A stretch of DNA of 32,000 nt from an uncultured archaeon (GTDB taxonomy: Archaea; Iainarchaeota; Iainarchaeia; Iainarchaeales; 0-14-0-20-30-16): positions 5,347-37,346 of the forward strand of contig CAZMGA010000005.1 in the NCBI GenBank assembly GCA_964565725.1. Direction: 5' to 3'. The notes beneath the pieces were generated by a model. The model was not told the origin of the DNA. It made no database searches and saw nothing but the letters and a program-made list of their open reading frames with translations. Positions 1-27,599 of this stretch are shown here, piece by piece (within the stretch, counting starts at the first letter, position 1; the number at the start of each line of letters is the position of its first letter). A program made the position numbers and the translations under genes.

Positions 1-741
1 ATCAATAAATATTATTGTTGGTGCTTTTTCTTTTGCAATTTTAAATAAATCTTTTACTACTTTCGCACCTTCCCCAATAAATTTATGGACTAATTCTGAA
101 CCATTTAAACTAATCATAGTAGATTTTGTTTTTTGTGCAATTGCTTTTACTAACATAGTTTTTCCAGTTCCTGGTGGTCCGTATAATAAAATTCCTTTTG
201 GAGAATCAATACCAAATTTAATAAATAATTCTGGTTTTGTTAATGGTAATATAACAGTTTCTTCAACTTCTAATATTACTTTTTTTAAGCCTCCTACTTC
301 TTTAAAACTTATTTTTGGTTTTTCGTTTATTTCAAAAGCCTGTGCTCTGTAATCTTTTTCAGGACTTAGAACATCTAACATAGCCAAATTATTTTGTGCT
401 AAAACTACTCTAGATTCTATTTGAATTTCTTTTAAGAATCTTTCAGGTAAATTTACAAAAAATATCATACCATTATTTGTTCTAATAACTACTTTCATTT
501 TATCTAAAAATATTTCTGATACACTACCTATAATTGCGGGCGTGTTTTTGTACATGCCTATTGTTTTTTCTAATCTTTCATTTTCTAAAATTAAATTTTG
601 ATTTTGAATGGATAAATTTTCATTTTGTATTTTTAATAATTGAATTTCGTTTTTTATTTGTTCGGAATAGTTTTGATTATCTAAATTGTCATAAATATTT
701 AATGATTTTAAACTATTGCCTAAATTATTTAAATTTTCCAT
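1..741 (-). CDS. pan: Proteasome-activating nucleotidase (PAN, AAA+ ATPase); C-terminal part cut off by the window edge
   Basis: Reverse-strand ORF runs off the left edge, so it is absent from the ORF track. My translation: MENLNNLGNSLKSL...IQLLKIQNENLSIQNQNLILENERLEKT (coiled-coil-like N-terminus), then ...FKEVGGLKKVILEVEETVILPLTKPELFIKFGIDSPKGILLYGPPGTGKTMLVKAIA...APTIIFID. This has Walker A GPPGTGKT in the typical PAN/Rpt context. GGTGA Shine-Dalgarno lies 4 nt upstream of the ATG at 741-739. Confidence 0.85.
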   Translation of the reverse strand, partial: MENLNNLGNSLKSLNIYDNLDNQNYSEQIKNEIQLLKIQNENLSIQNQNLILENERLEKTIGMYKNTPAIIGSVSEIFLDKMKVVIRTNNGMIFFVNLPERFLKEIQIESRVVLAQNNLAMLDVLSPEKDYRAQAFEINEKPKISFKEVGGLKKVILEVEETVILPLTKPELFIKFGIDSPKGILLYGPPGTGKTMLVKAIAQKTKSTMISLNGSELVHKFIGEGAKVVKDLFKIAKEKAPTIIFID

Positions 742-774
742 TTTCTCACCTATTATATATAAATCTTAGATTAA

Positions 775-782
775 TTTATAAA
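775..782 (+). promoter_or_regulatory. TATA box (TTTATAAA) for a probably leaderless transcript of the transglycosylase operon
   Basis: TTTATAAA sits 21 nt upstream of the ATG at 804. That equals the spacing between the same octamer and the 5' end of the 5S rRNA at 6028. There is no Shine-Dalgarno before 804. Confidence 0.4.
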
Positions 783-803
783 GGTTTATGAGTTAGTTTT
801 AAT

Positions 804-2066
804 ATGCCTATAAAAATGCCTAAAAAATTAAGTAATTTTAGAAGTAATATTAAACATAATGCTAAAAAATTAACTTTAGGATTGGCATTAGCAGCTACTG
901 TCTCCGGCATAAGTCCTAAATTTAAAGTTGTAGATAAAAAACCTTTAGTTCATGAGGTTTATGATTATCGAAATTATGAATTAAAACAATCTATACTACA
1001 TTCAGAAATTTATGTGGAAGAAAGTATTTCTAGTAAAAAAATGAGAAATAAATTATTTTGTGAAAAATCATTAAACGAACTTTTAAAAAAATCAAATTCA
1101 AAAGAAAGTATTAACAAAATTGGTAAAATATTATTAACTAAATATCCTACAGATAAATTATATTTATATGATTTGGCAATAGAACTTTTTTCTAAAAATT
1201 TTAATGTGGATCCAATTATATTAAAGACTGTATTTCGTAGAAATCAATTTAGTCTAGATAACCCTGTTTTAGAATCAAATCCTGAAAGAATATCATCTAC
1301 ATTGGGCTTTAAAATAACTAAAAATGAATTAAAAGAAAATCCTTTATTAGGAATTCTTTCTGCAACTATTCGTATAAATAATTTATCTAAAAAATACGGT
1401 AAAGATTCTGCTACTTTATTATCCTATTATTTGAAAGGTTCAAATATTAAACCTGAAGATATTAAAAGATATGAATTAGAAATTATTAAATATAAAGGAG
1501 ATTATTGGGAAAAAATAGATAAATCTACCAGAAAGTTAAATGGTTTACAAACAATATCTTTAATGTCAAATTATAAAAAACATAATTATAAATTTTTATC
1601 AATTGAAAATTATAAAAAATTGTCTAAATTAGAACAAAGAAGAGAAATAGAAAGATTTTTATTTTATTTTCAAGGTATTTATAATTTTGATATAAAAACA
1701 ATTTCTTCAATAATAGAAATAGAATCACATTTTACATATGATTTAAAAAGTCCTGCTAATGCTATTGGTTTAATGCAATTAAAAGAAAGTAGTTTTAAAG
1801 AATTATTAGATAATTATGACTTTAAAAAAAATTTTGGTTTTGAACCCAAATTTAGAGATTTAAAAAATCCATATTTAAATTTATTTATGGGTATTATGCA
1901 ATATAAATATTTAGAAATTATGCATAATGGTAATTTGGAAGATATTATTAAAGCATATAATGGTGGTTCTAATGCATTATTAAATGCAAAAAACGGAGAC
2001 ATTAAAATGTCTGAATCTCTTACAAGATATTGGAATAAATTTTTAGGTGCATATAGGTCGAGATAA
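804..2066 (+). CDS. Lytic murein transglycosylase-like protein (SLT domain) with N-terminal membrane anchor/signal
   Basis: The C-terminal third carries the SLT/goose-lysozyme-like signature: IIEIESHF (catalytic E-S), ANAIGLMQLK, IIKAYNGGSNAL. The N-terminus KKLTLGLALAATVSGI is hydrophobic. Confidence 0.75.
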   Translation: MPIKMPKKLSNFRSNIKHNAKKLTLGLALAATVSGISPKFKVVDKKPLVHEVYDYRNYELKQSILHSEIYVEESISSKKMRNKLFCEKSLNELLKKSNSKESINKIGKILLTKYPTDKLYLYDLAIELFSKNFNVDPIILKTVFRRNQFSLDNPVLESNPERISSTLGFKITKNELKENPLLGILSATIRINNLSKKYGKDSATLLSYYLKGSNIKPEDIKRYELEIIKYKGDYWEKIDKSTRKLNGLQTISLMSNYKKHNYKFLSIENYKKLSKLEQRREIERFLFYFQGIYNFDIKTISSIIEIESHFTYDLKSPANAIGLMQLKESSFKELLDNYDFKKNFGFEPKFRDLKNPYLNLFMGIMQYKYLEIMHNGNLEDIIKAYNGGSNALLNAKNGDIKMSESLTRYWNKFLGAYRSR

Positions 2067-2068
2067 TT

Positions 2069-2992
2069 ATGTCAAAAATTTTTGAAATTATAATTGCTAT
2101 AATTGTAGCTTTATTATTAATTTTGTTTATTTTTAAATTGTTTATTTTTCCTAAAACAAATATTTATGCTGATTTAGAAGATTTAATAATTTTAGCAAAA
2201 TCAAAACCAGGGGAACCTATTTGTAAATATTTAAATTTAGATAAAGCTAATGTTTCTAGTAGTTTGTTATTTAATGATGATAAAGATTTAAATTATTTTA
2301 TCTGGTTTGTAGGTTCTGAAAAATTAAAAGTTTTTGCAAATAATGATAATTTTATAATAAATATAAATAATAATTTAGGCAAAAAAAGAATTTGTGCAGT
2401 ATGTTATCCTAAATTAATGTTTAATAAAGATTATGATGTTTTTTGTGAATTATCTTTTGATTCTAATTATAATAGTTTAAATGTAAATTTACAAAAAATT
2501 AATAGCCCTATTTCACAAGGTTTTATTTATAATAATAAAATAAATATTCCTCAAAATTATAAATATTATATTTATGTTTTTAATAACAATAAAAATATAA
2601 TTGCAAATTTGGAATCAATTTTAGATCAAGATAATGAAGATATAGATTTATTGTTAGACAAAAATTTCGAATTTAATGATTCTGGAAATAAATTAGTATT
2701 ACAATTAGTAGTTAAAAATAATGGTAATTATTATTCTGGATTTGGACCTGCTAAATTTTTGTATCAAAATTTAGTAATAAATGTAAATTCAGAATACCAA
2801 AAAAAAGATTGCGTTGCAACTTATAAAGAAAAACAATACTATAACTATGATCTACAAAAATGTGTTTATTATAATTATTGTAATAATTGTATTTTACCAA
2901 ATCATTGTGCTGAAAAATGGAATGCAGAGTCATTATCTAAAGATTATTCTATTTCATATACTAACGAATCTGTAATGGAATGTAATGAGTGA
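2069..2992 (+). CDS. Hypothetical membrane-anchored, Cys-rich extracytoplasmic protein
   Basis: N-terminal TM helix IFEIIIAIIVALLLILFIFKLFIF, then an Asn/Tyr-rich domain with 12 Cys, clustered near the C-terminus (CVATY...CVYYNYCNNCILPNHC...EC). Starts 3 nt after the transglycosylase stop. No family recognised. Confidence 0.55.
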   Translation: MSKIFEIIIAIIVALLLILFIFKLFIFPKTNIYADLEDLIILAKSKPGEPICKYLNLDKANVSSSLLFNDDKDLNYFIWFVGSEKLKVFANNDNFIININNNLGKKRICAVCYPKLMFNKDYDVFCELSFDSNYNSLNVNLQKINSPISQGFIYNNKINIPQNYKYYIYVFNNNKNIIANLESILDQDNEDIDLLLDKNFEFNDSGNKLVLQLVVKNNGNYYSGFGPAKFLYQNLVINVNSEYQKKDCVATYKEKQYYNYDLQKCVYYNYCNNCILPNHCAEKWNAESLSKDYSISYTNESVMECNE

Positions 2993-2997
2993 ATAAT

Positions 2998-3678
2998 ATG
3001 TTTGAATTATTGGGTAATTGGTTATTAACATTAATAAATAATATTGGTTATTTTGGTTTAATATTTTCTATGTTTATAGAAAGTACTTTTATACCTTTAC
3101 CTTCAGAAGTAATTTTAATTCCCGCAGGTATATTATGGTATCAAAAGGTATTTGATCCTATTTTAATAATTATTTGTGGAACTTTTGGAAGTATTTTAGG
3201 GGCTAGTTTAAATTATTTTATAGGGGCTAAATTAGGTCGACCTTTAATATACAAACATCCTAAATGGTTTTTTTTTAGTGAACAAAAATTAAAAAAATTA
3301 GATTTGTTTTTTGAAAAGTATGGTGCTTTAAGTATTTTTTTTGGAAGACTAATATTTGGAGTTAGACATTATATTTCTTTTCCTGCTGGATTTACTAAAA
3401 TGAATAAGAAAAAATTTGTTCTTTTTACAGGTTTAGGTTCTTTATTATGGGTTACTTTTTTAACAATTTTGGGTTATTATTTTGGCTTACAAATGCATTT
3501 AATAAAAAAATATATGTATTTATTTACTATATTAATTATTTTGGTAATTATTATGGCAATATTTATTTATATAAATAAAAATTATAATTTATTTACAAAA
3601 ATAAAAATAAAAATTAAAGAAAATAAAGAGAAAAGAAAACAAAAAAAATTAAATAAATTAAAAAATAAAAAGATTTAG
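2998..3678 (+). CDS. dedA: DedA/SNARE-associated family membrane protein
   Basis: GYFGLIFSMFIESTFIPLPSEVILIPAG and FFGRLIFGVRHYISFPAG are typical DedA motifs, and the protein has multiple TM helices. The track starts at GTG 2989. I prefer ATG 2998, which is preceded by GAGTGA plus 5 nt. Confidence 0.8.
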   Translation: MFELLGNWLLTLINNIGYFGLIFSMFIESTFIPLPSEVILIPAGILWYQKVFDPILIIICGTFGSILGASLNYFIGAKLGRPLIYKHPKWFFFSEQKLKKLDLFFEKYGALSIFFGRLIFGVRHYISFPAGFTKMNKKKFVLFTGLGSLLWVTFLTILGYYFGLQMHLIKKYMYLFTILIILVIIMAIFIYINKNYNLFTKIKIKIKENKEKRKQKKLNKLKNKKI

Positions 3679-6324: not shown

Positions 6325-7473
6325 CTATTTTTTTCCAATTATAGTAAATTCTTTAATATATCCTATTTTTTCAGTTCTATTATAATGGCAGAGTATATTT
6401 CTGTTTATTGAAATATCCATTACTTTAAGATTATTTAATTTGTATAATTCTTGTATATATTCATAAATATCAAAAATTTCTTTTCCTATTATTCCTCCAG
6501 CTATAGTTATACTTATTATACCATTTTTGTTAATTTGTTTTGTTATTAATTTTATAAAATCTTCTAATTGCATAAAATATTCTTGTAAAGAATAGTTTTC
6601 TGATTTATAGTAATTAGTATTTAAATTTTTAATTTTTTCTGAAAAATAATTTTCATAAAAATATTTGTTTTTATTAATTTTAGAATTAATTTCACCTAAA
6701 TGTTCTTTTAAAATTGTATCTTTATTTAATATTGCCAATTCTAACCCATATCTTTTTGTATATTCTGTTTTATTTAAATAAGGTGGTGAAGTAATAACAT
6801 AATCAAATTTTTGTTTATTATCTTCTAAAAATTTAAACACGCTTTTATTATAAACTTTTATTTCTGAGTTAGAATTAATCCTTGTTTTTTTTATGTCTTT
6901 TACTAATTCTTTGAAAATATTTTCAAATACTTTACTTGTTATTCTTTTTGCTTTTTTTACTTTTGTTAAACTAGAATTATTTTTATTGGCGTTCATTATT
7001 TTTTCAATTGTTTTTAATAATACTAAATAAAAAAAGAATTTTTCATTTTCATTAATTTTATCTATATTATTTTTAATATTAATTAAATCTTTTAAATTTT
7101 CTGAATAAAAATATTTTTTAATCCATTCTATATTTTGATTTATTGCTAAATTTGAATCATTTAATATTAATATTTGTGGTAATAAATTGTTTAATAAATT
7201 TATATTATAGTTTTGTGTTTTTGCACTACTTACTAAATACATTAAATATGATACGTCTGTTCCTATTGCATTAAATTTAAATTCTTTAGAAGTTAATAAT
7301 GTAGTTCCTGTGCCACAAAAAGGATCATAAACTAAAATATTTTTTTTATTTATAGGATATTTTTCAAATATTTTTTTAACTAAATCAAAAGAATATGCTT
7401 CTGTAAATTCAAACCAATTGTAAATTTTATTATGTTTGTTTCCTTGAAAAGTACTATCTAATATTTTTCGCAT
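6325..7473 (-). CDS. SAM-dependent N4/N6-type methyltransferase (SPPY catalytic motif); the substrate could be DNA or RNA
   Basis: The SAM-binding region NWFEFTEAYSFDLVKKIFEKY...ILVYDPFCGTGTTLL resembles the motif X-I block of N4/N6 MTases. Catalytic motif IV, DYVITSPPYLN, lies about 175 aa later. No nuclease ORF is adjacent. Confidence 0.65.
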   Translation of the reverse strand: MRKILDSTFQGNKHNKIYNWFEFTEAYSFDLVKKIFEKYPINKKNILVYDPFCGTGTTLLTSKEFKFNAIGTDVSYLMYLVSSAKTQNYNINLLNNLLPQILILNDSNLAINQNIEWIKKYFYSENLKDLINIKNNIDKINENEKFFFYLVLLKTIEKIMNANKNNSSLTKVKKAKRITSKVFENIFKELVKDIKKTRINSNSEIKVYNKSVFKFLEDNKQKFDYVITSPPYLNKTEYTKRYGLELAILNKDTILKEHLGEINSKINKNKYFYENYFSEKIKNLNTNYYKSENYSLQEYFMQLEDFIKLITKQINKNGIISITIAGGIIGKEIFDIYEYIQELYKLNNLKVMDISINRNILCHYNRTEKIGYIKEFTIIGKK

Positions 7474-7480
7474 TTTATCA

Positions 7481-8506
7481 CTAATCTATAATTTTAAAAT
7501 CTATTACAATTTGAATAATATCTGGAGAATAATCTCTAACCTTTCTTTTAAAAATAACTTTAATTTTTTTATTTTTCTTTTTTGCAAATTCTTTTAATTC
7601 TTTTAAAATCTCTTTGTAAGGATTAATATTATCTACGAATTTATATAATGTAATTATACCTGTGTTTTTTTTAATTGCTTTATATGCTGCTTCTAAAAAC
7701 AAATCAGATGTTTTTGGTAAAGGCATGATAATATAATCACATTTATTTTCTATTTTTTTTGCATAATTATAAACATCTGCACATATTGGTTTTACATTAT
7801 TAATTTTATTTAATATAATATTTTCTAAAGCCATTTTATGTGCTTCTTTATTTAATTCTATACTATAAACTTTACAATTAGGGTGTTTTTTACCAATTAC
7901 TATTGAAAAAGGTCCAACTCCTGAAAAAAATACTCCTACTGTTTTGTTATCTTTAATAAATTCTGAAACTCTTGTTCTTTCAAAAGACAATCTAGTTGAA
8001 AAAAACATTTTCCCTAATTCTACTTTAAATTTACAATTATTTTCATTAATTATTGTTGTAAAAGATTTTTTACCTGCTAAATATTTTACTTTTTCTACTC
8101 TATATTCTCCTTCAAAAGGGCTTATTTTTTTAACTATTGTTTTTAATGAAGGATTTATTTCTAATAATCTTTTTGCAATTTCTCTTTCCTTTTCTTCCAT
8201 CTCTTTAGTTATTTTAATTATTGCTATATCTCCTAATGTGTCATAGCTAGAAATATAATCTTTTATTTTAAATTCATTTACTAAAATATCTTTAAAAGAT
8301 TTTGTAGTAATATATTTTTCTGATTTTTTATTTACTATTTTATATTTTTTTAATATTTTTATTTTAGGATTTAAAGTAGTTATGGGGAAGTAAACATAAT
8401 TTTTATCATTTTGGGCTTTTATTCCTTTATTATAAATATTATGCTCTATTAATATTTTTTTAATATTCTCTGCTTCGTTTTTGTTTGTTTGTATAAAATA
8501 AGTCAT
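7481..8506 (-). CDS. trm5: tRNA (guanine37-N1)-methyltransferase, Trm5/Tyw2 (Met-10+) family
   Basis: KFKVELGKMFFSTRLSFERTRV is the characteristic Met-10+ block, followed by a class I MTase core (VGVFFSGVGPFSIVIG, IELN, IIMPLP). Confidence 0.75.
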   Translation of the reverse strand: MTYFIQTNKNEAENIKKILIEHNIYNKGIKAQNDKNYVYFPITTLNPKIKILKKYKIVNKKSEKYITTKSFKDILVNEFKIKDYISSYDTLGDIAIIKITKEMEEKEREIAKRLLEINPSLKTIVKKISPFEGEYRVEKVKYLAGKKSFTTIINENNCKFKVELGKMFFSTRLSFERTRVSEFIKDNKTVGVFFSGVGPFSIVIGKKHPNCKVYSIELNKEAHKMALENIILNKINNVKPICADVYNYAKKIENKCDYIIMPLPKTSDLFLEAAYKAIKKNTGIITLYKFVDNINPYKEILKELKEFAKKKNKKIKVIFKRKVRDYSPDIIQIVIDFKIID

Positions 8507-12627: not shown

Positions 12628-13059
12628 ATGCCACTAGAAAAGCCAAAACAATTAGAATTATTTCCTAGATTAAAAAAATTTAGACCTGGAAGGTTATCTT
12701 ATAAACATCATAGTTTTAATGGTGTTCAGACTTATAAGGTTGGTAATAAAGGGGTAATTTTTGCAGAAGCACACGTTTTGCAACAAAATGGAAAGCCATT
12801 ATTGTATGATATTAGAATAATGCCTGGATTTGATTTATTAAAAAGAAATGGAATTGCAAAAAGATTATTAAATAGAGTAATTGAAAGTCTTAAACAACAA
12901 GGATATAATGATTTAACATTATATGTTGATAAGGGAGAGGGTATTTTTGGAGATAATGATTTTAGAAAAGAATTATATTTATTAAGGTATTACTCAAGAT
13001 TTGGTTTTAAAGTTATAGGTAAAAATAGAGGTTATTTTAAAATGCGTTTAGATTTTTAA
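12628..13059 (+). CDS. GNAT-family N-acetyltransferase-like protein
   Basis: RNGIAKRLLNRVIESLKQQGY resembles GNAT motif A (R/Q-x-x-G-x-A/G plus helix). FYSRFGFK-like YYSRFGFKV sits at the C-terminus. Confidence 0.5.
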   Translation: MPLEKPKQLELFPRLKKFRPGRLSYKHHSFNGVQTYKVGNKGVIFAEAHVLQQNGKPLLYDIRIMPGFDLLKRNGIAKRLLNRVIESLKQQGYNDLTLYVDKGEGIFGDNDFRKELYLLRYYSRFGFKVIGKNRGYFKMRLDF

Positions 13060-14471
13060 TTATAATTTTCAAATTTTAATGATCTTATTTCATATAATAA
13101 TGAGTTATATTGGTTTACCAATGAGTTATATTCTTTAATTTCAGAATTGTTTGCGAATTCTTTTGTTTTTAATTCATCTATAACAGATTTTAGATTATTT
13201 AAAATTATGGTTTTTTCATTTATTTGATTTAGTGTATTTTGACCATATTTTGATTCTATATATTTTTTTCCATCTGATATTGGTATTACATTTATAGGTT
13301 CAAAATTGATATCATTTATTACATTTTTGTTTGTAGTTTCAATATAACAAACTTTATCTGAATTTATATAATAATCTGAATTATTACAACTAACAGCTAC
13401 TACTGCATGATCTATTAAATTATCTTCAAAGATTGTTTTCCCTACTACTATATAGTTAGAATATCCAAATTCTTTTAATATTCCTGATAAAATAACCGAT
13501 TTGTCTAAGCACAATCCTTTCATAGACCATAAAGTTTCATAAGGATAAGTATTTTTATTATCCCAATTATAATTATAAGGTATTTCTTGTACAAATCTAA
13601 CTGCAATTTCTAATATTTCTGAATCATTAAAATTATAATCTTTTAATGAATTAAAATCATTTGCTATTTTTTTTAAAATTAAATTATTATATTCGTCCAT
13701 GAAATATCTTCTTGCTGATTCATTTTCTTTATAAGTATAACAATATTGATTTTTTAGTTTTATAGAATAATTTACTAAATCTTCATGTAATTCCAAATTA
13801 TATACAAAATGATATTTGTCATAATTAAAATAAAAAGTAGAATGTCGTTTATTATTATAATCAATAGTTAAATTATCTTTGTTTAAAGTACATTTATCTA
13901 AAGTTTCTGGGTTAATATTTATAACATTTAAATTATAATCTTTTTCTTGTTCTAATGTTTCTAATTCTTTTAATTCTAATGGTTTTAATTCATATATTTT
14001 TATTTGACTATTAATATTAGAATATAATTTGTCTAAATTAATTTTTTCTAAATTATTACTATTTCTAGGATTATCTATATTACAATCTATTTGTAATAAA
14101 TTATTATTTTTACATTTATAAATTAATTCTGGATTTTTTAAATCTTCACAATTTTCTTTATATTTTAAAACAATATAATTACAAAAATCTTTTTCAATTC
14201 CATTTAAATCTTCACAAGATTTAAATATATCATCGTGTTTTGATATTGATTCACAATAATAGCAATCTTTTTTATTTGTATAATTTGAACAGTTTCGTGA
14301 AAAATTAATATCTTGTATTATTATAATTTCATTATTATCATTTATATCTGTTATTTCTGTTTCATTAGAAATTGAATAATTTAAATCTATTTGTTTGAAT
14401 TGTTCTATAAAATATACACCTATACTTGAAAATAATATTAACAAAACAAATAAAATAATTATTTTTTTCAT
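13056..14471 (-). CDS. Membrane-anchored Cys-rich protein with C-terminal transglutaminase-like (papain-fold) core
   Basis: N-terminal anchor KKIIILFVLLILFSSIGVYF, then a Cys-rich N-terminal half. The C-terminal block WSMKGLCLDKSVILSGILKEFGYSNYIVVG...IDHAVVAV...CYIETT fits the Cys-His-Asp/Glu transglutaminase-core pattern. Confidence 0.5.
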   Translation of the reverse strand: MKKIIILFVLLILFSSIGVYFIEQFKQIDLNYSISNETEITDINDNNEIIIIQDINFSRNCSNYTNKKDCYYCESISKHDDIFKSCEDLNGIEKDFCNYIVLKYKENCEDLKNPELIYKCKNNNLLQIDCNIDNPRNSNNLEKINLDKLYSNINSQIKIYELKPLELKELETLEQEKDYNLNVININPETLDKCTLNKDNLTIDYNNKRHSTFYFNYDKYHFVYNLELHEDLVNYSIKLKNQYCYTYKENESARRYFMDEYNNLILKKIANDFNSLKDYNFNDSEILEIAVRFVQEIPYNYNWDNKNTYPYETLWSMKGLCLDKSVILSGILKEFGYSNYIVVGKTIFEDNLIDHAVVAVSCNNSDYYINSDKVCYIETTNKNVINDINFEPINVIPISDGKKYIESKYGQNTLNQINEKTIILNNLKSVIDELKTKEFANNSEIKEYNSLVNQYNSLLYEIRSLKFENYN

Positions 14472-17932: not shown

Positions 17933-18775
17933 ATGCCTGTTAAAGAACAATTACATTTTTTAAATTTATTAAAAAAAAGACAAACGCAACGAAAAGAAAT
18001 ATCTAATGAAGTTTTTGATTCTTTAGCTGAAAGACAAAAAAGAATGCCTAAAAATATAGGTAGGACATCAAAAGAATTATTACTAATATTAGATAGTTTA
18101 GGTATAAATTCTCCAATTGAAAAAAAATATGTTTTGCAAGGTTTAAGAAAAGCAAGAATAATGTTTGGAAATAAATTAACTGATCCTGCTTACTTTAAAG
18201 ATACTATTGAACATTTAAGAGCAGAATTTGAATTATTAAAAACACAAAAAAATTTAGCAGTAGTTTTAAGGTTAGGAATATCTCCATTTCAGATTTTAGA
18301 TATAAATCATGAAATTAGTGCTTTACCTAAAGAATATTCTGATTTAAGTAATACTATTCGTGGTTTAGTTTTACGTAAAGTTTATCCTAATGTATCTGCT
18401 TTGATAATTCCAATGCAAAAAATAAGTTCTTTTTTAAAAGGGTTATCATTATCTCGAGGTTTGAAAATAAAAATTATTCAATATACTTTTAACTTAAAAA
18501 ATAAAAAAAATACATTTGAAGAAGCATTTGATAAAGCGTTAAAATATTTTACTTTGCCTTTGAAATTTTTAAGTTTAGATGCGAGAACAAATAAAGGTGA
18601 TGATAAAAGCTATCATGAAAAAATAGGTACTAATGAAAATAATCCTTTAAAGTTATTATCTGAAAAAGATAACCAAATACTTTTAGAAAAATTAAGTGTT
18701 TTTTTGGGTGAAAGATACAATGAATTAATATCACATTTAGAAGAACATGATACTTTGCCTAATTGGGCAATATAG
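17933..18775 (+). CDS. Hypothetical protein
   Basis: 280-aa ORF starting 4 nt after the HAD gene stop. No motif recognised. Confidence 0.45.
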   Translation: MPVKEQLHFLNLLKKRQTQRKEISNEVFDSLAERQKRMPKNIGRTSKELLLILDSLGINSPIEKKYVLQGLRKARIMFGNKLTDPAYFKDTIEHLRAEFELLKTQKNLAVVLRLGISPFQILDINHEISALPKEYSDLSNTIRGLVLRKVYPNVSALIIPMQKISSFLKGLSLSRGLKIKIIQYTFNLKNKKNTFEEAFDKALKYFTLPLKFLSLDARTNKGDDKSYHEKIGTNENNPLKLLSEKDNQILLEKLSVFLGERYNELISHLEEHDTLPNWAI

Positions 18776-24406: not shown

Positions 24407-24586
24407 TTGAGTTTTTTAAAAGATGATAAAGCACAAATATCTGTAGAAATGATAATTGTTTTAGCTGCTTTATTAGCTGTTGCTATAGTATTAATTACTA
24501 AATTATCTAGTACTAGTAAACAAGCCTCTGAAAAGATTGATGATAAAACTAATGATTTAATGGAGCAAATAGATGATATTAATTAA
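24407..24586 (+). CDS. Small archaeal type IV pilin-like protein (class III signal peptide), TTG start; not in ORF track
   Basis: My translation: (M)SFLKDDKAQISVEMIIVLAALLAVAIVLITKLSSTSKQASEKIDDKTNDLMEQIDDIN*. The KA-QISVE junction followed by a hydrophobic helix mirrors KG-QISLE in the next gene. GAGGTGAT SD 3 nt upstream of the TTG. Confidence 0.6.
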   Translation: MSFLKDDKAQISVEMIIVLAALLAVAIVLITKLSSTSKQASEKIDDKTNDLMEQIDDIN

Positions 24587-24974
24587 AAAAGGGCAAATAT
24601 CTTTAGAATTTTTAATAGTTGTTTTGGCAATGGTTTCAATTTTAATTATATTTATGCCTGTATTTGTTAAATTAATGAATGCTTTACTATTAACAATTGA
24701 TACTTATAATGCTTCAAAGTATTTACAAGAATTTCAAACAAATGTAAATACTTTAAATACATTAGATTCAGGTTCTAGTTTTAAATTTGAATTAGATTTT
24801 ATAAAAACAGCAAAACTAATTTGTCATAATAATATTATAAAAATTGAATTAAATCATAAAAATAATAAAATATTAGAACGGGAATTAAGTTTAAATTGTG
24901 ATTTTGATTTAGAAATTAATAAAAAAATTTCTTTTTTAATTACAAAAAGTGAAGAATATATTGTTTTAAATTAG
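24573..24974 (+). CDS. Archaeal type IV pilin-like protein (class III signal peptide)
   Basis: The N-terminus MILIKKGQISLEFLIVVLAMVSILIIFMPVF has the canonical prepilin-peptidase site (K-G | Q-x-S-x-E) plus a hydrophobic helix. It overlaps the preceding pilin gene by 14 nt. Confidence 0.65.
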   Translation: MILIKKGQISLEFLIVVLAMVSILIIFMPVFVKLMNALLLTIDTYNASKYLQEFQTNVNTLNTLDSGSSFKFELDFIKTAKLICHNNIIKIELNHKNNKILERELSLNCDFDLEINKKISFLITKSEEYIVLN

Positions 24975-25762
24975 CTATATCCTTCGTAATTTTTTAATTG
25001 CTTATAGAAAAATCTTCTAAATGTAATTACACAAATTAAAGCATATATTCCTAATAATATCGTTAATATAATGCTCCAAAATAAATTTACTTTATTTAAA
25101 AATATTAATGCAGGAACAAATAAACATACTAAAGTTGGAGGAAATAAAAAAGATATTAAAATAAAATAAGGTCTGGTTAATATTTGCATAGGATATTCAG
25201 AAAATCTTTGTTGAATAACTCTATATAACCAAGAAGCATCATTAACATCCCCATATTTAAAACTTAATAAGTGTATTGATGAATTAATAAATAAAAAAGA
25301 TATTAATCCAAAAATATATGCTATTAAACCCAATATAAATGATATTATTGTTAAATTTATACTTAATATAAAAAACATAATAATTACAAATATAAAACTT
25401 ATAATAAAGAATATTAAATTATGATAATTAATTTCCCAAAATGTAAATAATGTAATTGTGTCTTTTGGTTTTATTAAATAAATATTTAATTCGCCCGATG
25501 TTACTAAATAACCATAATTTTTTAATCCCAAAGTATATAATAATTCAAAAGGTATTTGATTTATAAAAAATAAAAACATAATTTCATTAAAATTCCATCC
25601 TACTATGGTTTCAGTAAATCCAAATATTGTTTTAAAAAATACAAATACAATTAAATAATAACCCATTTGTAATACAAAATATATTAAACTATCTTTATTG
25701 AATTCTTTTATAGCTCTAAATTTAGATAACATTATTTTTTTAATTAAATTCCAATAAGACAT
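24971..25762 (-). CDS. ABC-2-type transporter permease (COG3694/COG4587-like)
   Basis: About 6 TM segments in 263 aa. Last gene of a three-gene ATPase-permease-permease unit. Confidence 0.6.
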   Translation of the reverse strand: MSYWNLIKKIMLSKFRAIKEFNKDSLIYFVLQMGYYLIVFVFFKTIFGFTETIVGWNFNEIMFLFFINQIPFELLYTLGLKNYGYLVTSGELNIYLIKPKDTITLFTFWEINYHNLIFFIISFIFVIIMFFILSINLTIISFILGLIAYIFGLISFLFINSSIHLLSFKYGDVNDASWLYRVIQQRFSEYPMQILTRPYFILISFLFPPTLVCLFVPALIFLNKVNLFWSIILTILLGIYALICVITFRRFFYKQLKNYEGYS

Positions 25763-26542
25763 TTAACCACCATAACCATCATATTTTTTTAAGCCTTTTT
25801 TTTCTAAAAACTTTGCTAATGCGTAAAATATAATTATCCAAAGTATATATTGTAAAACAATCCAAATGTTTGGAACTAATTGTCCTAAATATATTTTTGC
25901 AGGAGTATAAACCATTAAATTAAAAGGTAATATTAAAAATATTTTTTGAACTATTTCAGGAAATAAATCTAATGGCAAAAATCTACCTGCTGAAAAATTT
26001 ATAATCATACCTATTAAAGATATAACTCCAAAGTTTTTTCCTAACCAAAAACTAGAGAATTGCAATGCGACTACTAAAAAACTCATTATTATAATTCCTA
26101 AAATATAAAATAATATTCCTAACAATGAAATTGGTCCTATAAATATTAAACCAGCCATTATCACAAAAAACAGTATAAATATTAATGGAATTAAATATTT
26201 TGAAAAAATATTATAAAAATAATTTTGTGTTAAGCTTAATGGCCTTGTTAATCTATTTGCTATTTGTCCATAATATACTTCTTCAAATATACTCCATTGA
26301 TCTCCAACTCCATAAAACAAACCCCATACAAAAAAATAATATAAATAAATTTCTTTTGATGAATAAATAAATAAAGGACTTTGAGATATAATACTCATTA
26401 AGAATATTACTGGAATAAAATCTAATATTGGTGAAAGAATGTATGCAATTCTTCTAAATGGATATGCATTTAAATCTTGCCAATAAAATTTTAATGTACT
26501 TAAAAAATATTTTAAATTAAATTTATTTAACATATCCATCAA
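25763..26542 (-). CDS. ABC-2-type transporter permease (COG4587/COG3694-like)
   Basis: About 6 TM segments in 259 aa. It abuts the downstream permease with no gap and overlaps the ATPase gene 3' end. Confidence 0.6.
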   Translation of the reverse strand: MMDMLNKFNLKYFLSTLKFYWQDLNAYPFRRIAYILSPILDFIPVIFLMSIISQSPLFIYSSKEIYLYYFFVWGLFYGVGDQWSIFEEVYYGQIANRLTRPLSLTQNYFYNIFSKYLIPLIFILFFVIMAGLIFIGPISLLGILFYILGIIIMSFLVVALQFSSFWLGKNFGVISLIGMIINFSAGRFLPLDLFPEIVQKIFLILPFNLMVYTPAKIYLGQLVPNIWIVLQYILWIIIFYALAKFLEKKGLKKYDGYGG

Positions 26543-27509
26543 CGTATATTTTTTTTACAATTTCTTTTAGATTTGGTTCTTCAATTTTTAAATCAAATAC
26601 TTCATAACAGTTTAATAGCTCTTTTGTTATTAAATCAATTCTTATTGCTGGTGATTTTAATATAATATAATTTTTATTTTTTTCAATTATTTCTAAATTT
26701 TTTAAATTTGGTTCTTTTAATTCTTTTTTAAAATATATTGTAATTCTTTTCCAATTAGCATATTTATTTTTTAATTCTTTTAAATCACCATCATATACTT
26801 TTTTACCTTCATCAATCATTATAATTCTATTACATAATTCTTCAATATCATCCATATTGTGAGTTGTTAGAATTATTGTTGTATTATATTTTTTGTTAAT
26901 TGTATCCAAGAATCTAATAATTTTTTCTCTAGCTATTAAATCTAAACCAATAGTGGGTTCATCTAAAAATACTATTTTAGGATTGTGTAATAATGATGCT
27001 ATTATTTCAAATCTCATTCTTTCTCCTAAAGATAATTTTCTTACTTGTGTATTTAATAAATGACTTACATCTAATTCTTTTGCAAATTCTGTTATTTTAT
27101 CTTTTATGTATTTGTCATCTAAATTGTATATTGTGCCTTGAATCTCCAAAGCATATTTTGGAGGTATATCTTGACTTAACAAACTTCTATTTCCAAAAAC
27201 TACTCCTATATCTTTTACATAATCTATTCTTTCAGTAAATGGGTTTTTGCCTAAACATTTAATAGTTCCTGATGTAGGTATTAAAATTCCTGTTAACATT
27301 TTTATAGTTGTACTTTTACCAGAACCATTTTCTCCAATATAACCTATTTTTTCTCCTTCTTTAATTTCAAAAGACATATTAGTTATTACTTTTTTATCTT
27401 TTTGTTTTTTGATTAAAAAGTTTTTAAATTTATTAAATCTACCTTTTATTTCTTCAGGTACTTTAAATATTTTATTAACGTTATTTAAACTAATTATTAT
27501 ATTTGACAT
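26523..27509 (-). CDS. ABC transporter ATP-binding protein (COG4586-like, with C-terminal extension)
   Basis: Walker A GENGSGKST, signature LSLGERMR, Walker B VFLDEPTIGLD, H-loop TTHNM. I prefer ATG 27509 (GAGTGAT plus 5 nt upstream) over the track GTG 27518. Confidence 0.9.
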   Translation of the reverse strand: MSNIIISLNNVNKIFKVPEEIKGRFNKFKNFLIKKQKDKKVITNMSFEIKEGEKIGYIGENGSGKSTTIKMLTGILIPTSGTIKCLGKNPFTERIDYVKDIGVVFGNRSLLSQDIPPKYALEIQGTIYNLDDKYIKDKITEFAKELDVSHLLNTQVRKLSLGERMRFEIIASLLHNPKIVFLDEPTIGLDLIAREKIIRFLDTINKKYNTTIILTTHNMDDIEELCNRIIMIDEGKKVYDGDLKELKNKYANWKRITIYFKKELKEPNLKNLEIIEKNKNYIILKSPAIRIDLITKELLNCYEVFDLKIEEPNLKEIVKKIYVDGYVK

Positions 27510-27599
27510 AAAAATCACTCTTAAAAAGTTTTTTCAAAAATTAGAATGTGTAATACATATATAAATGTATTAGATTATATTTTTAAATACTATTTATAT

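Follow-up and report, generated by a model that had tools for sequence, protein, structure and literature searches.

A predicted exported lytic transglycosylase beside a cysteine-rich membrane protein and a DedA protein in a DPANN-type archaeal genome

Archaea have no murein. Why, then, does an archaeal genome encode a lytic transglycosylase, and do the neighbouring genes tell what this enzyme is for? The question is raised by a 32,000-nucleotide stretch of DNA from an uncultured archaeon of the Iainarchaeota (assembly GCA_964565725.1, contig CAZMGA010000005.1, positions 5,347 to 37,346 of the forward strand), which was analysed as a whole and is referred to below as the window. Near its left end, three co-oriented open reading frames (ORFs) follow each other closely (Table 1). 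They encode a protein with an SLT-type lytic transglycosylase domain (SLT protein), a cysteine-rich membrane protein (ORF2) and a membrane protein of the DedA family. On whether bacteria serve any DPANN archaea as hosts or prey, murein-cleaving enzymes give the main genomic hint. The reading that we prefer, and to which we give about an even chance of being right, is that the locus encodes an exported and catalytically competent family-1 lytic transglycosylase, together with a neighbouring and possibly cooperating unit formed by a disulfide-rich surface protein and a UptA-like DedA flippase.

The SLT protein scores well over the gathering cut-off of the Pfam SLT model PF01464 (residues 293-398, E 7.3e-16, 58.2 bits versus 21.3), which is the outcome of a profile check proposed in an earlier note that had been made from the letters of this DNA alone. 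The full catalytic signature that the earlier note had read from the sequence is indeed present, in the form of the motifs EIES (305-308), GLMQL (322-326) and AYNGG (384-388), followed by RYWNKF (408-413), and Glu307-Ser308 is aligned with the catalytic Glu-Ser pair of Escherichia coli MltE/EmtA in both phmmer and profile alignments. The closest solved structures are those of MltE/EmtA (phmmer E 1e-6, PDB 6gi4/2y8p) and of an MltC-type enzyme, and EmtA and MltC are also the top NCBIfam models, with scores far under the equivalog cut-offs (34.6 versus 233 bits). The SLT protein thus resembles MltE (EmtA) and MltC in having a homologous catalytic domain, the Glu-Ser, GLMQ and AYNxG motifs and a predicted export signal. 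It differs from them in being archaeal, in lacking a lipobox, in carrying an additional N-terminal region of ~250 residues and in scoring so far under the equivalog cut-offs.

Five further members of this protein type, of 382-415 amino acids (aa) and only 24-34% identical overall to the window protein, were retrieved from related loci. Residues S308, G322, L323, Q325, A384, G388 and R408 are invariant in the alignment of the SLT proteins (A3). Every full-length member has kept ES, GL(M/L)Q, A(Y/H)NxG and R-Y-x-x-K, the last of which we take to be motif IV, and the catalytic Glu as well as the Tyr and Lys of R-Y-x-x-K are present in all five full-length members. Because these motifs persist despite such low overall identity, the pattern indicates that selection acts on catalysis.

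The protein starts with a basic N-terminus and a hydrophobic core (residues 23-36). A variable linker then leads to a conserved helical middle region (~126-245), and the catalytic domain (293-420) comes last. All full-length members (5/5) start with M-P-(L/I)-(K/R); basic residues come next, and then a hydrophobic core that is 12-19 residues long. In the window protein, this core is short, with 12-14 residues (LTLGLALAATVSGI). These features support a predicted Sec-type export signal. The earlier note had seen a hydrophobic N-terminal anchor: the hydrophobic stretch behind basic residues is there, but it looks like a signal peptide, and a permanent anchor is without support. For the ~250 residues that precede the catalytic domain, searches of Pfam, NCBIfam, PHROG and the PDB gave no family or structure match. 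When the middle region (window positions 1179-1538) was compared with the protein's own catalytic domain using hhalign, 115 colinear columns were obtained (P 7e-4, probability 26%), with other residues at the position of the Glu-Ser pair. This suggests that the middle region may be a duplicated, catalytically dead SLT-like module, perhaps one with a binding function. Altogether, the motifs and their conservation support the view that the SLT protein is an exported, apparently active family-1 lytic transglycosylase encoded in a DPANN-type archaeal genome.

The promoter region of the SLT gene is also conserved. In L004, L005, L013 and L015, four diverged relatives of the locus, TTTTTATA or TTATATAA boxes are located 21 nucleotides (nt) before the SLT start codon (22 nt in L005), which matches the position of the TATA box in the window. 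No Shine-Dalgarno (SD)-like motif precedes the ATG at 804 or the SLT starts of the relatives. The box is found at this fixed distance in five of five lineages, and the reading of a leaderless mRNA, which was put forward before from the window alone, therefore rests on conservation and not on AT-richness alone; the predicted boxes support a leaderless SLT mRNA. A scan for sigma-70 promoters and terminators gave fewer matches than in shuffled sequences and no terminators, and was uninformative. The divergent intergenic region of 62 nt on the other side (window 739-803) appears to hold two promoters, the SLT TATA box and a stretch on the side of the PAN-like gene (TATATATA, ~753-760) that would serve the latter. 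The PAN-like gene has a GGTGA SD sequence directly before its start codon, and the SLT gene has none.

Does the contig belong to an archaeon at all? A bacterial contig (for example, of the candidate phyla radiation), a chimera or an integrated mobile element or virus would make the SLT protein an ordinary bacterial or phage wall enzyme, and the bacterial type of its domain and weak PHROG matches to families of endolysins and tail lysins (E 2e-6 at best) would fit such an origin. The gene content of the window is archaeal, however, as the earlier note had stated: archaeal markers are present on both flanks, among them Nre_N/Nre_C, DUF63, Trm5/TYW2, a class III signal peptide, a PAN-type AAA ATPase and a beta-CASP protein, and genes for TruD and archaeal-type aminoacyl-tRNA synthetases are also encoded. 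The GC content is ~20% across the whole window, with no compositional break at the SLT, ORF2 and DedA genes, and neither an integrase nor repeats nor tRNA genes were found at the borders of the gene block. Moreover, the same arrangement occurs on independent assemblies from at least eight samples. The loci of the ORF2 relatives carry genes for Topo VI-B, PriS, GINS51, eIF2-alpha, L21e, RIO1 and archease, and the two ORF2 relatives that come from named genomes belong to metagenome-assembled genomes (MAGs) labelled Candidatus Diapherotrites. We consider a bacterial, chimeric or mobile origin extremely improbable. A phage, plasmid or viral origin was also rejected by database searches, which found no relatives in phage, plasmid and viral-contig collections except for one partial match of 37% identity.

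The second protein, ORF2, had been described as an ORFan of no recognisable family with 12 cysteines, encoded 3 nt behind the SLT gene. The cysteines number 10, and the gap is 2 nt (2067-2068). It is correct that no Pfam, NCBIfam or PHROG family matches ORF2. However, an exhaustive phmmer search of 1.8 billion representatives retrieved 10 further cluster representatives (E 1e-41 to 9e-4), all in archaeal contexts, so that ORF2 belongs to a small lineage-restricted family of 11 lineages, including the window, and is not an ORFan. Only this exhaustive search recovered the relatives. A search with a reduced ORF2 alignment led to two genome loci and two metagenome loci, and word-indexed searches with ORF2, the SLT protein and the ORF2 alignment yielded almost only the queries among the matches listed, with AT-rich low complexity saturating the candidates.

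All complete members of the ORF2 family except one contain exactly 10 cysteines. In the family alignment (A1), C126, C248, C265, C271, C274, C280, C305 and W284 are invariant, and the best-conserved part is the C-terminal motif C-x5-C-x2-C-x5-C-x3-W (residues 265-284). An extracytoplasmic domain with about five disulfides would account for the even and fixed number of cysteines; alternatively, the C-x5-C-x2-C-x5-C cluster may bind a metal. An AlphaFold model based on the 11-sequence alignment (predicted local distance difference test, pLDDT, 81.4; predicted template modelling score, pTM, 0.65) consists of a transmembrane (TM) helix, a short helix and beta-rich domains, with the Cys-rich C-terminus as the best-defined part. 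Foldseek searches with this model gave weak generic matches to tandem Ig/BIG2/FN3-like domains (TM score ~0.2). From the model, ORF2 may plausibly be a membrane protein of type II whose ectodomain, probably extracellular, is a beta-sandwich and has a binding or scaffold role. N-glycosylation sequons are not enriched in ORF2, and their number does not inform on its topology. A further candidate identity, that of an archaeal type IV pilin-like protein, was dismissed because the hydrophobic helix of ORF2 is not preceded by a K/R-G/A cleavage motif and because Pfam Class_IIIsignal matches window ORF 24573-24974 but not ORF2. In one 1.5-kb metagenome contig (L006, 64-1053), the Cys-rich gene is present as two ORFs (64-354 and 439-1053), with the DedA gene still downstream; the split may reflect a frameshift, a pseudogene or an assembly error.

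The third gene encodes a DedA protein, as had been noted before. Pfam VTT_dom (PF09335) matches with an E-value of 1.3e-22 and 81 bits (gathering cut-off 33.9), and four hydrophobic segments indicate a polytopic membrane protein. Of the two starts that had been considered, ATG 2998 and GTG 2989, the first is the correct one: the N-termini of homologues (MFEL.../MLE...) align there, and the resulting protein has an exact match in a public protein collection. The gap to ORF2 is then 5 nt. Its identity to the gene immediately 3' of ORF2 in L006, L008, L013, L014 and L015 is 50-59%. The protein contains the motifs E-S-T-F-I-P-L-P-S-E and R-x6-R; we take E-x-x-F-x-P-x-P-S-E and R-x6-R to be typical of the COG0586 subfamily. 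UptA (NF052604) is the top NCBIfam model and matches 181 of 198 profile positions (residues 8-192) with 105.7 bits, under the equivalog cut-off of 250. The nearly full-length match and the shared motifs liken the protein to the UptA/COG0586 flippases (Roney and Rudner, 10.1101/2022.02.03.479048; Sit et al., PMC9876793; Todor et al., 10.1101/2023.01.04.522824). Unlike UptA, it has an archaeal host, its carrier would be dolichyl phosphate, and it stays under the equivalog cut-off. Proteins of the DedA family are widespread in archaea and have been proposed to be flippases of polyprenyl phosphate or other lipids (bioRxiv 10.1101/2022.02.03.479048, 10.1101/2023.01.04.522824; PMC9876793). The simplest reading of the DedA protein of the window is that it flips or scrambles polyprenyl phosphate or some other lipid. 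In L015 (6968-7966), the DedA protein has 332 aa and continues into a SET (lysine methyltransferase-like) domain at its C-terminus, an unusual fusion for a membrane flippase.

Are the three genes coupled, as the earlier note had proposed? The gene context was analysed for all 11 ORF2 lineages. Eight are close (window, L004, L005/L007, L006, L008, L013, L014 and L015/L016), with ORF2 31-38% identical to that of the window, and three are distant (L009, L011 and a 150-kb JGI contig). Among the close lineages, the SLT gene is directly upstream of ORF2 in all six for which upstream DNA is available (window, L004, L005/L007, L008, L013 and L015/L016), and the DedA gene is directly downstream in six of the seven with downstream DNA (window, L006, L008, L013, L014 and L015). 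The adjacency thus recurs in relatives, so that the refuting case named in the earlier note, three genes that are never syntenic there, does not apply, and the trio is complete in four independent lineages (window, L008, L013 and L015). In L005, another gene follows ORF2 in place of DedA. It is homologous to window ORF 17933-18775, with 67% identity, and no Pfam family matches that ORF. This L005 copy (7054-7678) ends in a tandemly duplicated segment of ~35 aa (DLPKEYSDLS.TIRG.VL.KKYPDVRRAVQVL) at the contig edge.

One interpretation of this adjacency is that the trio is a dedicated operon for a single wall-breaching or scavenging machine, in which the Cys-rich protein docks the enzyme on the bacterial wall and the DedA protein handles lipids or lipid-linked fragments. 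The complete trios agree with this, as do the gaps of only 2 and 5 nt in the window and the similarly high rates at which SLT and ORF2 diverge. The arrangement of the promoters speaks against it. The relatives have kept an independent TATA box at positions -29 to -22 of ORF2 (TTTTTAT[AT] in L004, L005, L008 and L015; TTTATATA in L013), and the distance of DedA to the ORF2 stop codon is 0-14 nt, with SD-like GTGA/GAGG sequences upstream in most of six loci. The own TATA box of ORF2 and the SD-like motifs before DedA point to an ancestral layout of a monocistronic SLT gene followed by an ORF2-DedA bicistron, and only DedA looks translationally coupled to ORF2, which weakens the idea of one three-gene unit with a single promoter. 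In the window, the internal TATA box has degraded to TTTTTAGG, consistent with read-through from the SLT promoter; with a spacer of 2 nt, all three genes may here be read from that promoter.

Two further observations speak against a single machine. First, the genes also occur apart. The pair of SLT and ORF2 is present without an adjacent DedA in L005, and none of the three distant lineages has an SLT gene upstream of ORF2 (Table 1): ORF2 lies behind a GT2 glycosyltransferase gene and a further gene in two of them and behind a coiled-coil gene in the third, so ORF2 is not strictly tied to the SLT gene. Second, the functionally unrelated PAN-like gene adjoins SLT just as constantly. Indeed, the whole block is syntenic (TK, His_Phos, Fer4, PAN ... 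beta-CASP, TatD, Trm5, DUF63, Nre). Because the unrelated PAN-SLT adjacency is equally conserved, a shared gene order among lineages this diverged cannot be taken as a sign of function. We therefore regard a single machine as unlikely, and a physical or functional link between the SLT protein and ORF2/DedA is unproven. What sets the genes apart within the block is their divergence. Identity to the window proteins is 63-70% for PAN (tblastn against the genes upstream of SLT in L004, L005, L013 and L015), 69% for beta-CASP, 60% for TatD and 50-59% for DedA, versus 31-35% for ORF2 and 24-34% for SLT. SLT and ORF2 are thus the two fast-evolving genes of the block, which fits with surface-exposed interaction proteins.

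The distant lineages bring up another possibility, namely that the module serves an envelope glycan of the archaeon itself, with ORF2 handling a glycan, the GT2 enzyme making or the GH23 enzyme cutting a GlcNAc (N-acetylglucosamine)-type polymer, and DedA recycling dolichyl or polyprenyl phosphate. In L011 and the JGI contig, the two most distant lineages, ORF2 follows a processive GT2 gene and a gene for a TM protein of 208-211 aa that is unrelated to SLT or any other window protein and belongs to no known family. The GT2 carries the motif QRVRW, and its best match is the poly-N-acetylglucosamine synthase PgaC/IcaA (E 1e-40), far under the equivalog cut-off. ORF2 has its own GGTGA SD sequence in the distant lineages, 0-18 nt after the upstream gene; with this SD sequence and a gap of 0 nt, ORF2 of L011 is probably co-transcribed with the glycan synthase. 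A role in the cell's own envelope would also fit with the stable core housekeeping neighbourhood of the gene, with UptA as the best match of the DedA protein, and with the proposal that DedA flippases recycle carrier lipids (bioRxiv 10.1101/2022.02.03.479048). Yet there is no GT2 gene within the 32-kb window, SLT and GT2 genes never occur together in the examined loci, and both the GT2 and the UptA scores are far under their equivalog cut-offs. As to the chemistry, we know of no archaeal polymer that is a substrate of family-1 lytic transglycosylases, and the 1,6-anhydro mechanism is characteristic of MurNAc (N-acetylmuramic acid). An own-envelope role thus appears rather improbable to us.

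Since archaea have no murein, the most likely substrate of the SLT protein would be the peptidoglycan of neighbouring bacteria, be they host, prey or debris. Our preferred reading, an exported lytic transglycosylase beside a possibly cooperating ORF2-DedA pair, may then be put as follows. The locus would consist of two juxtaposed surface-related units, placed among housekeeping genes that a DPANN archaeon has inherited vertically. The first unit would be a leaderless gene for an exported GH23 enzyme of the MltE/MltC type, with perhaps a dead SLT-like module in front of an intact SLT domain with Glu307, and this enzyme would act outside the archaeal cell by cleaving the MurNAc-GlcNAc bond. The second would be a bicistron for a clade-specific type II membrane protein, with about five disulfides, and a UptA-like DedA protein. 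In the window, the spacer between the units would have shrunk to 2 nt, and together with the degraded internal TATA box this could have fused them into a single transcript.

Several points weigh against this reading. Cultivated DPANN archaea have archaeal hosts, and the present data contain no direct evidence for a bacterial partner. The GH23 family includes enzymes that are active on chitin and GlcNAc polymers, and murein is thus not the sole possible substrate. The AlphaFold model of the SLT protein was built from a single sequence and, with a pLDDT of 39.8, does not inform on the active-site geometry. A recognised peptidoglycan-binding domain is absent from the SLT protein, for which a Pfam scan finds SLT only. 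ORF2 exists without SLT (0/3 distant lineages with SLT upstream, and 1/3, the JGI contig, with DedA downstream), and the adjacency of SLT to the unrelated PAN-like gene is kept in five of five cases. Finally, the SLT gene is passed on stably as part of a core block of the chromosome, unlike the weaponised archaeal hydrolases, whose distribution is patchy or plasmid-borne (PMC12352652). A more far-reaching version, in which a Diapherotrites-like clade has fixed in its core genome a three-part host-interface module that opens the bacterial sacculus and takes up or recycles lipid- or polyprenyl-linked material, is in our opinion a long shot. Its parts would be the exported transglycosylase, whose dead SLT-like module serves for binding, the disulfide-rich membrane protein with Ig-like domains and the UptA-like DedA flippase. 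If it were true, such a module would be genetic evidence that the archaea of this clade live on bacteria and not on fellow archaea.

How does the locus compare with what has been described? The earlier note had mentioned murein transglycosylase genes in DPANN bins, and these have in fact been published since 2013 (PMC8204110, PMC9723730). Large proteins of up to 3,000 aa with a lytic-transglycosylase domain (fam00969) were found in those Woesearchaeota and Pacearchaeota with the smallest genomes, and attachment to or degradation of bacterial walls was proposed as their role (Castelle et al. 2021, PMC8204110, citing the earlier sightings of Rinke 2013 and, for Woesearchaeote AR20, Castelle 2015). 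GH23 genes are present in several MAGs of Woesearchaeota, for which a predatory, 'vampiristic' lifestyle was proposed (Vigneron et al. 2022, PMC9723730). The locus described here shares with these an SLT domain in a small-genome DPANN archaeon, a predicted extracellular location and a proposed role at the bacterial wall. As far as a comparison by description goes, it differs from fam00969 in the size of its SLT proteins (380-420 aa), their occurrence in Diapherotrites-labelled MAGs, the fixed position beside PAN and the pairing with ORF2. At 420 aa (relatives 382-415 aa), the SLT protein is not one of the very large proteins of Woesearchaeota and Pacearchaeota, with which it appears to share the SLT domain alone.

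Archaeal peptidoglycan hydrolases of another class kill bacteria, as was demonstrated by experiment in a study whose survey required a recognised wall-binding domain (Strock et al. 2025, PMC12352652). Like these, the SLT protein is a bacterial-type enzyme in an archaeon, has an export signal and would be aimed at a polymer that archaea lack. The enzymes of Strock et al., mostly peptidases or amidases, contain recognised wall-binding domains; their distribution is patchy, and their genes are often found on plasmids. The SLT protein, in contrast, is predicted to cleave glycan strands, has no recognised binding domain and is inherited vertically in a core block; the modular combination of a catalytic and a wall-binding domain (PMC12352652) is not found in it.

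SLT genes in DPANN archaea and their interpretation as a means of attacking or attaching to bacteria are therefore already published and not new. As far as literature searches show, a DedA gene next to one for a lytic transglycosylase or for a member of the ORF2 family is without earlier description, and the architecture of 380-420 aa with a possible dead SLT-like module, the fixed core position in Diapherotrites-labelled genomes, the ORF2 family and the recurrent arrangement of SLT, ORF2 and DedA are likewise undescribed. What the locus adds is, first, an enzyme type of small size that is conserved by vertical descent and has kept all catalytic motifs. Second, its gene has a fixed place in the chromosome, with leaderless promoters that are likewise conserved, and third, a family of Cys-rich surface proteins not recognised before is encoded beside it. 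The soluble enzyme (380 aa) and the ectodomain of ORF2 (280 aa) would make easy targets for expression. The overall picture is unchanged, as both the enzyme class in DPANN archaea and its interpretation were published before and the link to the neighbouring genes is unproven.

Table 1. Features of the SLT-ORF2-DedA locus (window positions) and gene orders around ORF2 in the distant lineages (positions on the respective contig). SD, Shine-Dalgarno; TM, transmembrane.
Feature	Position	Strand	Remarks
PAN-like AAA+ ATPase gene, 5' part	1..741	-	truncated at the edge of the window; transcribed away from the SLT gene
TATA box TTTATAAA	775..782	+	21 nt upstream of the SLT start codon (ATG 804)
Predicted exported lytic transglycosylase (SLT protein), 420 aa	804..2066	+	Pfam SLT; signature motifs; export signal
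Degenerate TATA-like element TTTTTAGG	2040..2047	+	within the SLT coding sequence, at its 3' end; -29 to -22 relative to the start of ORF2
Lineage-restricted Cys-rich membrane protein (ORF2), 307 aa	2069..2992	+	TM helix 3-26, then a beta-sandwich-rich domain
SD-like GAGTGA before DedA	2984-2989	+	DedA probably co-translated with ORF2
DedA/VTT membrane protein, 226 aa, UptA-like (COG0586-type)	2998..3678	+	Pfam VTT_dom; UptA is the best NCBIfam match
L009: coiled-coil protein, ORF2, HhH-GPD			coiled-coil gene unrelated
L011: GT2, 211-aa TM protein, ORF2, convergent Nre gene	1278-3108		
JGI 150-kb contig (3300072015): GT2, 208-aa protein, ORF2, DedA, TatD, beta-CASP			

On its right side, the trio is bounded by a convergent gene for a beta-CASP nuclease. 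On its left, the PAN-like gene is incomplete in the window; Pfam AAA and AAA_lid_3 are recorded on the full gene in L002. Elsewhere in the window, a second Cys-rich protein is encoded on the minus strand (13056-14471). It has 471 aa and a transglutaminase-like DUF553 domain, and its 13 cysteines amount to 2.8% of its residues versus a window mean of 0.8%. Further downstream, a gene on the plus strand (24573-24974) encodes a small protein whose signal peptide is of the archaeal class III (type IV pilin-like) kind, and this gene is adjoined by an ABC-2 type transporter operon on the minus strand (24971-27518).

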